From IMG/VR virus record IMGVR_UViG_3300032007_004072, positions 74,223-138,222 of that record: 64,000 nucleotides of DNA; one strand, given 5' to 3'. The notes under the pieces were generated by a model. It made no database searches and had not been told where the DNA came from. It saw only the letters and a program-made list of their open reading frames with translations. Of the stretch, positions 41,840 through 59,845 are shown piece after piece; positions within the stretch are counted from its first letter, which is position 1, and each line of letters starts with the position of its first letter. The position numbers and the translations under genes were made by a program. This stretch comes from a virus. Lineage: Duplodnaviria; Heunggongvirae; Uroviricota; Caudoviricetes.

Positions 41840-41942
41840 TTTACCTCACTCTCCAATAAGTTTTATTTTTAGTATAGCATAAATTAGTCAAAAAGTCAAG
41901 AAAAAATTTATTGACTTTTTCTATTGACATTACTTTTTAGCT

Positions 41943-45554: not shown

Positions 45555-45817
45555 GGCTATATCAACTAAGTCATAATGCTAATGTGGTTCATTTAGATTC
45601 TGCATACATTTTATTCTCGTACAACGAACCTATAGCTATGTATAATGATGATGATACTTTGTTTTTGGTAAAAAATTGGGATAAGTTTTCACAATCAACA
45701 AATAAACATACCTATGAATTTTTAAGACAATACACGGCATATAAAACAATAAGAACAAAGAGAGAAGTAGAATCCTTAATAAAAAATAATTCTATAAAAA
45801 TAGTTGACAGTTTGTAG
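45551..45817 (+). CDS. hypothetical protein
   Basis: LFSYNEPIA...FSQSTNKH. Confidence 0.68.
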   Translation: MRLYQLSHNANVVHLDSAYILFSYNEPIAMYNDDDTLFLVKNWDKFSQSTNKHTYEFLRQYTAYKTIRTKREVESLIKNNSIKIVDSL

Positions 45818-45837
45818 AAAGTATGGTAATATAAGAG

Positions 45838-45937
45838 AGTAGGTTCTTTTGCATTGGGAACTTACAAGAATCTTAATAGATTCATCTCCTTTTAGAGAAA
45901 TATCCTTAGTAGTCCTACCTACTAGGGATATTTTTTT
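45838..45937 (+). ncRNA. candidate sRNA-1
   Basis: TTGACA 45804-17-TAATAT; hairpins; CATCTCCTTTT; 13-bp terminator stem plus T-run; no RBS-ORF. Confidence 0.65.
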
Positions 45938-45974
45938 ATCTTGACAAATAAAGCTAAATATGCTATATTATAAG

Positions 45975-46050
45975 TGGGCTATGGCTTCAACACTTTTCTT
46001 CTTTTATAATTTCAAATTACAAAAAAGGCTCTTGACAAAGGGCTTTTTTT
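45975..46050 (+). ncRNA. candidate sRNA-2
   Basis: TTGACA 45941-17-TATATT; 5' hairpin, U/C-rich linker, terminator. Confidence 0.5.
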
Positions 46051-46091
46051 GTGCTATAATATTGTAAATTATTAATAGAAAGGACAAAACA

Positions 46092-46397: not shown

Positions 46398-46483
46398 CAT
46401 ATATGAAATTCACAGAAAATTCTAGTTAAATGATAATTAATTTTATGACTTGACAAATTTGAAAAAATGTGTTATAATATATA

Positions 46484-46590
46484 TAGAAGGTGGAAATCAT
46501 CTTCTATCATTATCATTACTTACACTATACACACGTGTAAGTTTAACATTACCGTTTGTCATTGGGGGAGTAAAATCCCCCTAAATTTTT
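46484..46590 (+). ncRNA. candidate sRNA-4
   Basis: TTGACA 46450-17-TATAAT; two stems plus GGGGGA/TCCCCC terminator. Confidence 0.62.
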
Positions 46591-46621
46591 AATTAAAAAC
46601 ACTAATGAGGTGATTATATAA

Positions 46622-46861
46622 ATGAGCGTAGTAGATGACCTTACCCTCTTTGTGCGCAAATGTTACAAAGAGGCTTTTCAGAAGTATTATTTTGCACAAA
46701 AGACAAACAATACAAATGATGTATTATTCTTTTCGGGACAAGTAACATTTTTAGAGCAAAATTTTGCAACATATTTAGGACTAGATGTAGATAAACAAGA
46801 ATTAAAAGATTCAGCTAAAGAAGAAGTTGATTCTTTATTAGATTTTTATAATTCTCCTTGA
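46622..46861 (+). CDS. hypothetical protein (similar to 49832..50086)
   Basis: YK.A...YYF...Y..G...FLE.NF. Confidence 0.68.
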   Translation: MSVVDDLTLFVRKCYKEAFQKYYFAQKTNNTNDVLFFSGQVTFLEQNFATYLGLDVDKQELKDSAKEEVDSLLDFYNSP

Positions 46862-46891
46862 CAAATTGTTAAAATGATGGTATATTAAACA

Positions 46892-46970
46892 TGTACCTTC
46901 CTTTAACTCAATTCAACATAATCAACTTACAAGGGAAAGAGCCTACGAAAAATAATCGTAGGCTTTTTTC
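46892..46970 (+). ncRNA. candidate sRNA-5, antisense to early-gene leader
   Basis: TTGACA 46858-17-TATATT; ACCTTCCTTTAACTC...AACTTACA; terminator GAGCCTACGA/TCGTAGGCTT. Confidence 0.68.
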
Positions 46971-47041
46971 TTTTTTATACTTGACAATACTTTTAGTATG
47001 TGTTATACTTAAAGTACATTAACAGAAAGGAATGATAAACA

Positions 47042-47236
47042 ATGACACTTGAAGAAATTAAACAAGCAGTAAACAGTGGTAAGCATGTGTATTGGTGTAA
47101 TAATAATTATGAAGTAATTAAAGATAAATATGACCAATGGTTTATTGTATGCTATATTGGTAATACTATTGGACTTACTTGGAGAGATGGCAAAACTCTT
47201 AACGGAAAAGAAGAAGAATTTTATATTGGAGAGTAA
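47042..47236 (+). CDS. hypothetical protein
   Basis: MTLEEIKQAV..GK.V.W.N..YEV; own promoter. Confidence 0.72.
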   Translation: MTLEEIKQAVNSGKHVYWCNNNYEVIKDKYDQWFIVCYIGNTIGLTWRDGKTLNGKEEEFYIGE

Positions 47237-47673: not shown

Positions 47674-47844
47674 ATAATATTGACTAGGATGAAAAATTCC
47701 TAGTCTTTATTGCTTTTTATTACTTTCAGAATATTTATAATAGAGCGATTTTCAGACAACTTCTTTGTGGACATTTGTATTTTTCCTCTTGACTTTTTGA
47801 TTTATTTATGCTATACTAAAAGAAAAATTAAAGGAGTAATAAGT

Positions 47845-48888
47845 ATGAATTATTTAGACGCAAAGAGCAATGGTAAACGTAAATCAAAAAATCAGCGATT
47901 GCGTAGAATATGGTATCAAATGGTGTATAGATGTTATAATTCTAAGTGCAAAGCGTACCCTTTATATGGTGGTAGGGGAATTAAAGTACAAGAATCGTGG
48001 AAAGATAATTATTTTAACTTTGAAGATGATTTATACGATAGTTATATTAAACATGTGGAAGAATATGGAGAGAAAGACACAACTTTAGATAGAATTGATT
48101 ATAACGGAAATTACGAATTACCCAATTTACGTTGGGCTACACAAGAAGAACAAGCAAACAATACTAGTCGCAACTTTATAGTCATAGATGGATTAAATTT
48201 AACACAATTTAGTAATAAGTATGATTTACCTGTTGCAACTGTATGGGCAAGACTACATTATGGGTGGACAATAGAAAAAATTATAACTACACCTGTTAGA
48301 AAATTATCACCTAAAATTTATGCACCAACAGGAGAAAGTATAGAAGAACTTGCTAAAAGATTGAATATAAATAAAAGTACTATAAAAAGTAGGCTTAATA
48401 GAGGTTGGACATGGGAAAAAATATTAAATACTCAAGTTAGAGAGTCAATTGTTGCTCCAACAGGAGAATCTTTGCAAGAAATTGCAGATAAGTTTGGTAT
48501 TTCTCCTCACACGATAAAAACACGGCTTAATAGGGGTTGGACATGGGAAGAAGCTTTAAGTAATCCAGTTAGAAATATTTCTAAAATTGTGTTATCAACA
48601 GGGGAAACAATAGCAGAATTAAGTGAGCGTACAGGTATTTCTAAAAAGGTAATAGATACTAGGTTTCATCATGGTTGGTCAGTAGAAAAAATAATAAATA
48701 CACCTGTAGAACCTAGATATAAATATTATTTACCTTGTAATAAGTCATTAAAAGAACATTGTAATAAAAATAATTATAATTATAAGACAATAGTTAACTA
48801 TATTAAAAAATATAACTTAGAACCTCATGAAGCATTAGCCAAATATTTAGAAAATAAACAAAAAAGAAATAATAAAAATACCCCTTGA
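47845..48888 (+). CDS. HNH-like endonuclease with five C-terminal HTH repeats
   Basis: RLRRIWYQMVYRC..YGGRGI..TLDRIDYNGNYELPNLRWATQEEQANN; RL..GW..EKI..TPV repeats; start trimmed to ATG 47845. Confidence 0.85.
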   Translation: MNYLDAKSNGKRKSKNQRLRRIWYQMVYRCYNSKCKAYPLYGGRGIKVQESWKDNYFNFEDDLYDSYIKHVEEYGEKDTTLDRIDYNGNYELPNLRWATQEEQANNTSRNFIVIDGLNLTQFSNKYDLPVATVWARLHYGWTIEKIITTPVRKLSPKIYAPTGESIEELAKRLNINKSTIKSRLNRGWTWEKILNTQVRESIVAPTGESLQEIADKFGISPHTIKTRLNRGWTWEEALSNPVRNISKIVLSTGETIAELSERTGISKKVIDTRFHHGWSVEKIINTPVEPRYKYYLPCNKSLKEHCNKNNYNYKTIVNYIKKYNLEPHEALAKYLENKQKRNNKNTP

Positions 48889-48919
48889 CAATCTTTTTAG
48901 TATTTGCTATACTATAAGC

Positions 48920-49048
48920 AGTTAGAGAACACCAAATCTCTAACTAAGCATATATTTTTATCCCTTTCTAATGTCTTTGATTGAATCAAGGACGCTCAGC
49001 TTTTAACCTTACATGGATTATGGCAGGAATAAATTTCCTGTCATTTTT
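48920..49048 (+). ncRNA. candidate sRNA-6
   Basis: TTGACA 48885-17-TATACT; two stems, ATCCCTTTCT and AACCTTACA, GCAGG terminator. Confidence 0.65.
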
Positions 49049-49093
49049 CATTTTCCCTATTGACAGGATAATTGCTATATGCTATAATGAGTA

Positions 49094-49190
49094 CATAAGG
49101 TTGAAGTGAAACAGCCTTACACCTACCTTTCATAAAACTCTTTTAACTGCAAGATTGGGCTTAAAGAGCGAGGACTTTTTAAGCCTTTTC
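49094..49190 (+). ncRNA. candidate sRNA-7
   Basis: TTGACA 49060-17-TATAAT; 5' hairpin, ACCTACCTTTCATAAAACTC, terminator. Confidence 0.65.
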
Positions 49191-49334
49191 TTGTGTCACA
49201 AACAATGGAGGTCAATTAATTTGGAAACTACAGAATACCTACAAAGATTAAGACAGGAAATTAACAATGGAATAACATACAAAGATATTGAAAAAAGTAC
49301 TTGACAAGCAAAGCGAAATTTAGTAATATAATAT

Positions 49335-52937: not shown

Positions 52938-53113
52938 AGGAATAAGGCAGGGAAACCTGTCTTATTTTAATGTTTTAAATAGTTAGAAAATTATGGTTTT
53001 CAGACACTTTATTTCTAAAAGGAAAAATAAATTTCAAAAACCTATTGACATTATTATTGTTATATGCTACAATTACATTGTAAGGTTGATTAAGAGTTAA
53101 AAGAAAGGGTTGG

Positions 53114-53506
53114 TTGGTTATGAAAATTCATGTTAAGTATGTATATGTAAATGGTGTAAGTTTCTTTGCTTGTGCAGGTGGTGGTTATTATGTACATACA
53201 CCATTTTCAATGGTAGAGTATTCCAAAGGAGATAAAAAGATTTATTATATGGGGCTGAAACAGACCACAAAAGATGAATGTAACAAAAAATACTTAGAAT
53301 TAAAACATGATTGTAAACATATAAAAGGCAAGAAGTTTGAACGAGAAATAACAGAATATGATATAACAATGGAAGAATTAGAAAAGCAACTCATGAAAGG
53401 CTATGATGAATATACATGTTACATAGATGATTATAATCAAGAACAAGAAGCAATTAAGCATAATAAAGCTATATTAGCTAAAATAGAAGCAATTAAAGAA
53501 TTGTAA
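53114..53506 (+). CDS. hypothetical protein
   Basis: Cassette promoter 53045/53068; conserved leader. Confidence 0.68.
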   Translation: MVMKIHVKYVYVNGVSFFACAGGGYYVHTPFSMVEYSKGDKKIYYMGLKQTTKDECNKKYLELKHDCKHIKGKKFEREITEYDITMEELEKQLMKGYDEYTCYIDDYNQEQEAIKHNKAILAKIEAIKEL

Positions 53507-54964: not shown

Positions 54965-55147
54965 ATATGCAGGCAGGGAGAAATCCCTGTCTTTTATTAG
55001 TGTTTAATTGTCTGTTTTCAAGAATTATCTGTCAATTTCCATAAAAATATTTTTATGAAATTACTAATTTGTTATTGACATTATTTTATATGTATGTTAA
55101 AATAAGTATGTAAGTTGAAGTTGATTAATAGTTAAAAGAAAGGTTGA

Positions 55148-55483
55148 TTGATTATGTTTACTGTATGTGTAGAAAATTGGATTAACGAAAAGGAATTAGT
55201 AGTAAAGTGTGAAAGCAAGGAACAAGCAGAAAATGCACTTAAAATCATTGTGAATAACTTTTTAGAGGATTTTCTTATTGATAGTACTATGGAAGAATTT
55301 AATAAAGGTTTTGGGGAATATGATAGTATTATCAAAGAAGGAAAATTTATTATCCCCTATGAAGCTACTATGTATATTGACAATATGTTACCACAGGAAG
55401 TAGAAAAATTAGATAAAACACCTAATAATTTAGGTGGTTGTATGGTTATGACTTATAAGAAGTTTGTAGAAGAAAATATGTGA
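55148..55483 (+). CDS. acidic hypothetical protein
   Basis: Cassette promoter, conserved leader, terminator. Confidence 0.65.
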   Translation: MIMFTVCVENWINEKELVVKCESKEQAENALKIIVNNFLEDFLIDSTMEEFNKGFGEYDSIIKEGKFIIPYEATMYIDNMLPQEVEKLDKTPNNLGGCMVMTYKKFVEENM

Positions 55484-56426: not shown

Positions 56427-56592
56427 ATTTAATTTAGGGCAATTTAATTTTGCCCTGTTATTTTGTTAGGAAATTTTCAGAAAATTTAAAAGATAAATAA
56501 AATTCTGTTTGTCGAACTTCTTTTTCTAATTTCAAAATAACCACAACTAAATTTTTACTTGACAAGCTAACAATACAATGTTATAATATAGT

Positions 56593-56683
56593 TACAGGTT
56601 AAGATAAAACCTGTTAAAACCTTTTTATAAACTCAATTAACTTACAGCATTGCAGGCAAGAATAAAATTCTTGTCTGTTTTGC
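56593..56683 (+). ncRNA. candidate sRNA-9, antisense to early-gene leader
   Basis: TTGACA 56559-17-TATAAT; ACAGGTT/AACCTGT stem; AACCTTTTTATAAACTCAATTAACTTACA; terminator. Confidence 0.68.
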
Positions 56684-56771
56684 TATATTTATAAAAAACC
56701 TATTGACATAACTCTTATTATTTGTTATACTATATATAGAGTTAAGGAGTTAAAGAAAGGAAGTTGTTATT

Positions 56772-59508: not shown

Positions 59509-59590
59509 TATAAAGGGGAAAATTCCCCTTATTTTTTTATAAAAAATACTTGACATTATTTATATTATACTGTAGAATATAGTCATAAGG

Positions 59591-59845
59591 TTGATTAAGG
59601 GTTTTAAGAAAGGATTGGTAACTATGAAAAACTATGACGCTATCGTTGGTAACTATGGGATTGTAATGGAATATAATAGTAAAGGAAAGGTATTTACAGG
59701 GCATATAGATTATATAGGCAAGGCAAAAAATAAAAGAAGTGGTAACGGCTTTTTTGTTAGCTATGAATATAATAATATACGCTATGATTACCCTGAATTA
59801 GTCACTAAGCAAGTAAATAATTACTTGTTTAATGTTCTTTTGTAA
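59591..59845 (+). CDS. hypothetical protein (start about 59624)
   Basis: Cassette promoter and conserved leader. Confidence 0.62.
   Translation: MIKGFKKGLVTMKNYDAIVGNYGIVMEYNSKGKVFTGHIDYIGKAKNKRSGNGFFVSYEYNNIRYDYPELVTKQVNNYLFNVLL

Follow-up and report, generated by a model that had tools for sequence, protein, structure and literature searches.

The stretch of viral DNA analyzed here (the window, 64,000 nucleotides) covers bases 74223 to 138222 of the IMG/VR virus record IMGVR_UViG_3300032007_004072 (an uncultured phage; 147,994 bp, 29% G+C). The element under study, here called U5, is a predicted small-RNA (sRNA) gene unit at positions 46858 to 46975 of the + strand, flanked on the same strand by the open reading frames (ORFs) 46622-46861 and 47042-47236. 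It lies among promoters of a near-consensus sigma-70/sigma-A type, searched for as TTGAC[AT]-17-TAnnnT and mostly carrying an extended -10 TG, which number 65 on the + strand of the window against 4 on the minus strand, and 81 against 5 in the whole record, where they are concentrated at 100 to 140 kb. Most of these promoters lead to a short leader, a strong Shine-Dalgarno (SD) sequence and a small ORF, often followed by a terminator, and the promoter-rich region is an early region built of ~60 such promoter-leader-gene-terminator cassettes.

Anatomy of the U5 unit

As judged from its sequence, U5 is a + strand RNA gene running from promoter to terminator with a predicted transcript of ~80 nt (Table 1). 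Its promoter scores 11/12 with an extended -10 and belongs to a class common to ~65 other + strand promoters of the window. The first 41 nt of the RNA (46891-46931) are open in both the minimum-energy and the centroid folds, and the whole RNA folds at -22.5 kcal/mol (z score of -5.5). Rfam gave no match at gathering score anywhere in the window and, at E <= 1, sub-threshold matches at chance level only, the best of them on U5 being Thr_leader at 30.5 bits against a threshold of 55.

Table 1. Coordinates of U5, of its paralogues and of the predicted target leaders (window positions unless a locus is given; energies in kcal/mol)
Feature	Position	Strand	Description
U5 promoter	46858..46886	+	-35 TTGACA 46858-46863; 17-nt spacer; TG 46878-46879; -10 TATATT 46881-46886
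U5 anti-leader segment	46890..46931	+	unpaired in predicted minimum-energy and centroid folds
Anti-AUG CAT	46890-46892	+	part of the anti-leader segment
Anti-SD ACCTTCCT	46895-46902	+	part of the anti-leader segment
Anti-leader body TTAACTCAAT	46903-46912	+	part of the anti-leader segment
Nonpairing stretch, 8 nt	46913-46920	+	inside the anti-leader segment
ATCAACTTACA, complement of mRNA 5' end	46921-46931	+	part of the anti-leader segment
U5 intrinsic terminator	46931..46973	+	18-pair stem, 7-nt loop, U-tract
U6, probable anti-leader sRNA gene	48885..49050	+	5' hairpin, CCCTTTCT, middle hairpin, TTTTAACCTTACA adjoining terminator
U7, anti-leader sRNA gene	49060..49195	+	5' hairpin, unpaired ACCTTTC..AACTCTTTTAACT, terminator
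U9, paralogous anti-leader sRNA gene	56559..56685	+	promoter, 5' hairpin, unpaired CCTTTTT..AACTCAATTAACTTACA, terminator
5' untranslated region of 128-aa ORF (promoter 53045)	53079..53122	+	predicted target; U5 duplex -22.8
5' untranslated region of 109-aa ORF (promoter 55075)	55109..55156	+	predicted start TGTAAGTTGA to ATG at 55154
5' untranslated region of 73-aa ORF (promoter 59550)	59584..59626	+	predicted target; duplex -22.4, cofold gain -19 to -21
Leader at window-equivalent 65353	L052:1353-1401	+	best predicted U5 target, -32

The original prediction had presented U5 as an antisense RNA and not simply as an inverted gene cassette, a view that holds: the minus strand shows no promoter-like site in 46780-47120 and no ORF of at least 30 aa across 46890-46975, its leader-like sequence is followed by an ATG and a frame of only 7 codons, and no gap separates the terminator hairpin from the inverted leader start. 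The strings that it quoted (the reverse complement of 46895-46931 and the leaders 55109-55145 and 53079-53115) are correct letter for letter. The internal stem that it proposed between CTTCCTT and AAGGGAAAG, closing a "recognition loop," is absent from both folds and is disfavored, its AAGGGAAAG half being taken up by pairing with the terminator's U-tract. A leaderless 43-aa ORF at 46891-47022 was rejected as a coding candidate, being not conserved, with its ATG missing in a related strain (see below), and reading through both the terminator and the next promoter.

The -35 box overlaps the stop codon of ORF 46622-46861, and there is no terminator between this ORF and U5; therefore, read-through transcripts would carry the segment. 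U5 could, from these facts, be no independent gene and instead form the 3' untranslated region (UTR) and terminator of the ORF, with an incidental promoter-like site. We consider this the least probable of the explanations weighed here, given that the promoter equals those of the cassettes in quality and that the related strain has a different upstream gene, yet retains both the promoter (TTGACA-17-TAAGAT) and the anti-leader segment. Internal promoters at the end of an ORF are a known origin of sRNAs (DapZ/MicL type), and even a 3' UTR bearing the segment could still act in trans.

Complementarity of U5 to early-gene leaders

The leader family targeted in our predictions begins with TGTAAG(G)TTGA, and a second leader class is defined by AAAGGAGAGA. 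Against 61 leaders, the five best U5 duplexes averaged -23.9 kcal/mol, a value reached by none of 300 dinucleotide shuffles of the U5 segment (-17.9 +/- 1.5 kcal/mol) and by none of 300 shuffles in which the anti-SD was held fixed and the remainder shuffled (-18.4 +/- 1.3 kcal/mol). With three leaders added to the set, the z score of U5 was -3.7 (0/100 shuffles), and the reverse complement of the segment, used as a control, gave -15.2 kcal/mol. When the genome was scanned on both strands in ~19,700 stretches of 60 nt (mean of -8.0 +/- 3.9 kcal/mol), the best three nonself sites were all leaders, namely, 65353 (-32 kcal/mol), 64321 (-26.7 kcal/mol), and 55075/55109 (-25.7 kcal/mol), and the top sites genome-wide lie 8 to 18 kb away from U5. 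Positions beyond 64,000, such as 65353, are window-equivalent and belong to locus L052, outside the window. The match between U5 and the leaders is above chance as RNA-RNA complementarity and not above chance as plain similarity.

The computed pairing starts within 1 to 2 nt of the expected mRNA start (6 to 7 nt after the -10 box) and extends to the AUG, and the SD and AUG are covered by U5 in every top duplex. In the duplex with leader 65353, 11 bp form on TGTAAGTTGAT and 10 bp on ATTGAGTTA, followed by AGGGAGGT and the AUG, with the pairing bridging a hairpin left folded in the mRNA. In the duplex with leader 55109 (-25.7 kcal/mol; cofold gain of -22.6), sRNA positions 1 to 42 pair with leader positions 1 to 44. 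Cofold gains, which take intramolecular structure into account, amount to -27 to -28 kcal/mol for 65353 and to -19 to -23 kcal/mol for 55075, 53045, 59550, and 64321, compared with an average of ~-10 kcal/mol for 14 control leaders of the AAAGGAGAGA class. The computed order of predicted targets is headed by 65353, followed by 64321, 55075, 53045, and 59550.

These results refine what had been claimed from the sequence at first sight, namely, that U5 is a near-continuous antisense copy of leaders 55109 and 53079. The antisense relation stands, complementarity being computed from start site to AUG, and pairwise alignments show the shared blocks (the 10-nt TGTAAGTTGA, then GTTGA, AGTTAAA, and GGT for 55109; TTGATTA and GAGTTAAA for 53079). 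"Near-continuous" does not suit these two leaders, for which the match is interrupted, and fits 65353 better. Both are predicted targets, but the strongest is 65353, outside the window, with 55109 ranking third and 53079 lower.

Host transcripts are frequent targets of sRNAs from phages and prophages (PMC12197685), and the anti-SD ACCUUCCU would suit many Gram-positive-type ribosome-binding sites. U5 could accordingly be a host-directed sRNA serving host take-over, with the phage-leader match as a by-product of a generic CU-rich anti-SD seed. This is, in our view, quite unlikely: with the anti-SD fixed, the remaining segment still out-pairs 300/300 shuffles on phage leaders, and complementarity extends to the phage-specific leader 5' end TGTAAGTTGAT, of which nearly all + strand copies sit where phage leaders start. 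A positive or processing role, in which U5 would shield the mRNA 5' end from a 5'-exonuclease or guide a maturing RNase III cleavage, finds some support in the 11 bp covering the extreme mRNA 5' end and in the hairpin-type leaders, which retain their own hairpin in the cofold and thus give a junction-like complex. We rate such a role slightly lower still, because the SD and AUG are also covered in all of these duplexes, and an sRNA covering the SD and AUG blocks initiation.

Paralogous units and persistence in relatives

U5 is one of nine units, U1 to U9, in which a promoter is followed by a terminator without an ORF led by a ribosome-binding site (-35 boxes at 45804, 45941, 46208, 46450, 46858, 48885, 49060, 49301, and 56559). 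In the leader-pairing shuffle test, U9 and U7 reached z scores of -4.7 and -3.4, respectively (0/100 shuffles each), the first part of U6 taken alone was weaker (z score of -2.4), and U1 to U4 and U8 failed. The + strand of the genome has 8 copies of the motifs GTAAGTT[GA]A and GTAAGGTT[GA]A, 7 of them directly after a -10 box at leader starts, and the minus strand has 3, all in U5, U9, and U6 and each adjoining the terminator hairpin; the sole minus-strand copy of GTAAGGTT[GA]A is the one in U6. The best predicted targets are 65353 and 55075 for U5, 53045 for U6, 53045 and 59550 for U7, and 65353, 53045, and 64321 for U9. Leader 53045, the best predicted target of U6, is also among the top ones for U7 and U9, with cofold gains of -21.7 (U5), -30.9 (U6), -22.6 (U7), and -20.6 kcal/mol (U9). 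U5, U9, and U7 form, probably together with U6, a small family of anti-leader RNAs, and this family, with the units in relatives included, carries most of the evidence for function.

No close relative was found among GenBank phages (near and distant modes), in PLSDB, or in IMG/VR. A first U5 pattern gave zero matches in IMG/VR, a second pattern gave only chance matches of 19 to 27 nt in IMG/VR and JGI metagenomes, and a pattern of the U9 core yielded nothing beyond chance matches in IMG/VR and GTDB genomes. The relatives described here are metagenomic contigs found via the YonV-like protein and a 64-aa protein encoded downstream of U5. One related strain (L008/L016, L009), with flanking genes 97 to 99% identical, carries U1, U2, U3, U5, U7, U8, and U9. 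Its U5 allele is 85% identical overall, the terminator being the same; in the open part, CCTTCC is changed to CCTTCT, a C to T opposite G, and GT to AA near the anti-AUG, and 5 nt are lost from the nonpairing stretch. The best site of this allele in its own 20-kb locus is the orthologous leader (-30.9 kcal/mol), and the U5, U9, and U7 of this strain pair with its own 31 leaders with z scores of -5.6, -5.1, and -3.5, respectively. Along 46622-47041 compared with L008:11936-12366, identity is 56% in the upstream ORF, 75% in the U5 promoter, 78% in the open part, and 98% in the terminator and downstream. We withdrew point covariation between the two alleles as a line of evidence (four substitutions keeping or improving pairing), because alleles that differ by cassette exchange do not provide independent covariation.

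More distant relatives (L012, L018, L022, and L054; 70 to 80% protein identity) carry units of the same layout, i.e., a 5' hairpin, an open center with CCTTTC, CTCAAT, and CTTACA, and a terminator. The consensus fold of six such units leaves the center unpaired between two hairpins, with 6 pairs showing compensatory changes. A covariance model trained on U9-type units gives 65 bits to a member outside its training set, 27 bits to U7, and 21 bits (E of 0.35) to the related-strain U5. The U5 of the window has an open center and a terminator but no 5' hairpin; in a 10-sequence alignment, its center aligns with the U9-type center CCTTTC..CTCAAT..CTTACA. Short contigs with only 5 to 7 leaders gave a weaker anti-leader signal (z scores of -2.2 to -2.8, and none in one unit).

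The main rival explanation has to be weighed against these comparisons. According to it, cassette shuffling would have inverted a piece of a leader and left it caught between a promoter and a terminator; U5 would then be a relic whose RNA may be made, its complementarity being inherited and unused. In keeping with such an origin, the early region is a mosaic of ~60 cassettes with homologous boundaries, a mosaic breakpoint lies inside U5 itself, similarity to any one leader is imperfect, and U9 and U7 begin with a sense leader start folded on its complement, like an inverted duplication. A relic does not readily account, however, for an inverted piece that is exactly the transcribed leader, from start site to ATG, with the terminator abutting it and no promoter remnant, nor for the like orientation and position in three or four units. 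The same-layout units of diverged relatives, with compensatory changes in their hairpins and the open center kept, speak against it as well, as does the best target being common to both U5 alleles. On balance, we find the relic unlikely.

Genomic setting and neighboring units

The genes of the window include a YonV-type gene (PF27199), a clamp loader, a DHH phosphoesterase, a transposase, and several HNH homing endonucleases. The nearest GenBank relatives of the YonV-type gene are found in SPbeta-like Bacillus phages and large Clostridioides phages (~33% identity), and no integrase or serine-recombinase domain was found in the record. The HNH cassettes at 47789, 55598, 57766, and 60081 (+) and at 41899 (-) have their own promoter variant, TTGACTTTTTGA.., and a short leader, both differing from those of the other cassettes. 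The related strain L008 has neither the HNH endonuclease gene at 47710-48888 nor U6, and its U7 stands behind another ORF, of 147 aa; U6 and the homing endonuclease may have been gained or lost jointly.

At the end of the early region, the last four + strand genes (L052:321-5438, window-equivalent 64321-69438), which include the best predicted U5 target, have a variant leader in which a GCCC(C)-loop-GGG(G)C hairpin is inserted between the leader body and the SD; past L052:5438, genes turn to the minus strand. Between L052:1320-1401 and L016:17824-17905, promoter and leader are conserved across two strains and the ORF behind them differs. Such sequence comparison suggests that a leader moves as a module of its own, whatever gene follows it.

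Among the units that failed the pairing test, U1 (45804-45945) exposes UCUCCUUUU between two hairpins, and U2 (45941-46060) has a long CU-rich open stretch. Neither shows a preference for the TGTAAG leader class, and U1 cofolds somewhat better with the AAAGGAGAGA class (-8.3 versus -4.4); U1 and U2 could be counterpart RNAs for the AAAGGAGAGA leader class. U4 (region 46450-46621) contains a hairpin of the sense leader 5' end GTGTAAGT with its complement ACTTACAC, and a TGTAAG/CTTACA hairpin unit resembling that of U4 is found at L054:3143. There is no promoter between the U4 terminator (46564-46581) and ORF 46622-46861, and U4 may therefore be an attenuator-type leader of this ORF or a decoy with the sRNA target motif.

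Further promoter-to-terminator units without a counterpart in the window lie at L054:3143-4200, L008:11702-11907, and L008:13602-13704. Several of the extra units in these relatives have CU-rich open segments; therefore, the sRNA cluster beside the gene for the 64-aa protein appears conserved but fast-changing. In another relative, L015:3697-3830 holds a promoter, a hairpin with the loop CCUCCUU (anti-SD), a terminator, and an SD-led ORF, and by its sequence looks like an attenuator or a cis-acting anti-SD element.

Proposed mechanism and its weight

We favor, with modest confidence, the view that U5 is a trans-acting antisense sRNA blocking the 5' UTR in a set of early mRNAs defined by their leader, and that it probably turns down the translation of several early genes. 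U5 has what is expected of a trans-encoded sRNA, with its own promoter and Rho-independent terminator around a short transcript, no conserved coding frame, and an open seed whose computed pairing with unlinked leaders is above chance. From the anatomy, the open fold, the leader-specific complementarity, the family, and the persistence in relatives, all computed here, we infer that U5 is expressed, anneals in vivo, and represses, possibly with a nuclease involved. In the proposed mechanism, host RNA polymerase would start U5 at its promoter and stop at the intrinsic terminator, leaving an ~80-nt RNA with its first ~41 nt unstructured. The open segment, complementary in order to the start codon, the SD, the leader body, and the extreme mRNA 5' end, would anneal in trans over the entire 5' UTR and occlude the SD and AUG, thus keeping 30S subunits off. 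The long, interrupted duplex may also invite cleavage of the RNase III type. U5 would act beside U9, U7, and U6, each favoring overlapping but different leader variants, and the four RNAs would jointly turn down a leader-defined subset of early cassettes. Two alternative roles are conceivable for such control, either a delayed shut-off as stable sRNAs accumulate or a brake on leaky expression. In the former case, we conjecture that a stable sRNA would build up against short-lived mRNAs.

Several observations weigh against this reading. The sRNA and its predicted targets have the same class of promoter, which leaves the timing logic unexplained, and the target proteins have no Pfam match and only PHROG matches of unknown function. 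A leader outside the family (promoter 47245) attains a cofold gain of -17 to -19 kcal/mol, and the preference of U5 for the whole leader family is marginal (Mann-Whitney P value of 0.065), a result that fits the targeting of a leader subset. By blastn of the U5 unit against the genome, leader 55109 appears only at an E value of 0.18, and an nhmmer profile of 11 leaders, run on both strands, misses U5 on the minus strand, where its best matches are U7 (E of 2.1) and U9 (E of 21); hence, homology-type statistics do not carry the claim. A single other U5 allele was found, and the two differ by mosaic exchange with the breakpoint inside U5. Finally, the U9-type covariance model does not score the U5 of the window at E <= 1.

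A broader proposal, which we offer tentatively and hold to be rather doubtful as it stands, makes U5 one channel of an RNA-based, leader-addressed shut-off network. A clade of large phages with YonV-type (SPbeta-like) genes would retain several paralogous sRNAs, of which U5, U6, U7, and U9 would address the TGTAAG(G)TTGA class and U1 and U2 perhaps the AAAGGAGAGA class. Each RNA would be tuned to a subset of leader variants, and the ~60 independently promoted early cassettes would be regulated posttranscriptionally according to leader, not gene. If true, such a network could account for leaders being conserved as modules in front of genes that are exchanged, and control of the U5 type would give a functional reason for conserved leader modules in large mosaic phage genomes. 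For testing, the locus provides a number of paralogues, targets in a clear rank order, and naturally occurring alleles, and a U5-leader pair would supply a compact, programmable element for synthetic control.

Comparison with known systems

Most phage sRNAs established by experiment regulate either a single phage gene in cis or host genes, and a family of trans-acting sRNAs addressed to the phage's own shared early leaders would, if true, add a new level to temporal control. No family of the U5 kind is named in a 2025 review of phage sRNAs (PMC12197685). That review describes lambda OOP and P22 sar/sas, cis-antisense phage RNAs with their own promoter and terminator, RNase III being involved for OOP (PMC12197685). 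These RNAs resemble U5 in being short, in having a promoter and terminator of their own, and in repressing a phage gene by pairing, as U5 is predicted to do. OOP and sar overlap their target on the opposite strand with perfect complementarity, whereas the pairing of U5 is imperfect and in trans. With nothing encoded on the strand opposite U5, the RNA is neither a cis-antisense RNA nor a type I antitoxin, and no small toxin ORF of a type I toxin-antitoxin layout lies adjacent to or overlapping U5 on the opposite strand.

The CU- or C-rich anti-SD sRNAs of Gram-positive bacteria (LhrC, RoxS/RsaE) present an unstructured pyrimidine-rich seed to the SD of several mRNAs. They are chromosomal, use short seeds often located in loops, and serve host regulons; in contrast, U5 is phage-borne, has ~40 nt of predicted pairing up to the mRNA 5' end, and would address the phage's own cassettes. 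At the level of function, the T4 endoribonuclease RegB and the translational repressor RegA (PMC3014915) offer an analogy, and a functional one only, in that a phage factor singles out initiation regions common to many early mRNAs and shuts down the whole class. The two T4 factors are proteins, whereas base-pairing RNAs are proposed here, and the element recognized would be a longer leader, not GGAG alone; the network outlined above, if true, would be the RNA counterpart of RegA/RegB.

The nearest described system to U5 is the c4 antisense RNA of P1/P7 (Citron and Schuster, 1992, PMC312442), which is trans-acting (PMC8546580). As with c4, U5 is a phage RNA of ~77 to 80 nt predicted to repress the phage's own gene in trans at the ribosome-binding site. 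Pairing by c4 uses two or more short blocks, as does the pairing predicted for U5. Even so, U5 does not belong to the c4 family: no c4 homology appears in U5, the window being without an Rfam match at gathering score, and its predicted targets are separate cassettes with their own promoters, not cotranscribed with the RNA in the manner of c4. c4 is processed from the transcript of its target's operon and has a single target (icd-ant) in immunity. U5, unlike c4, has its own promoter and terminator, several unlinked predicted leaders as targets, and a complementarity that covers the whole 5' UTR.

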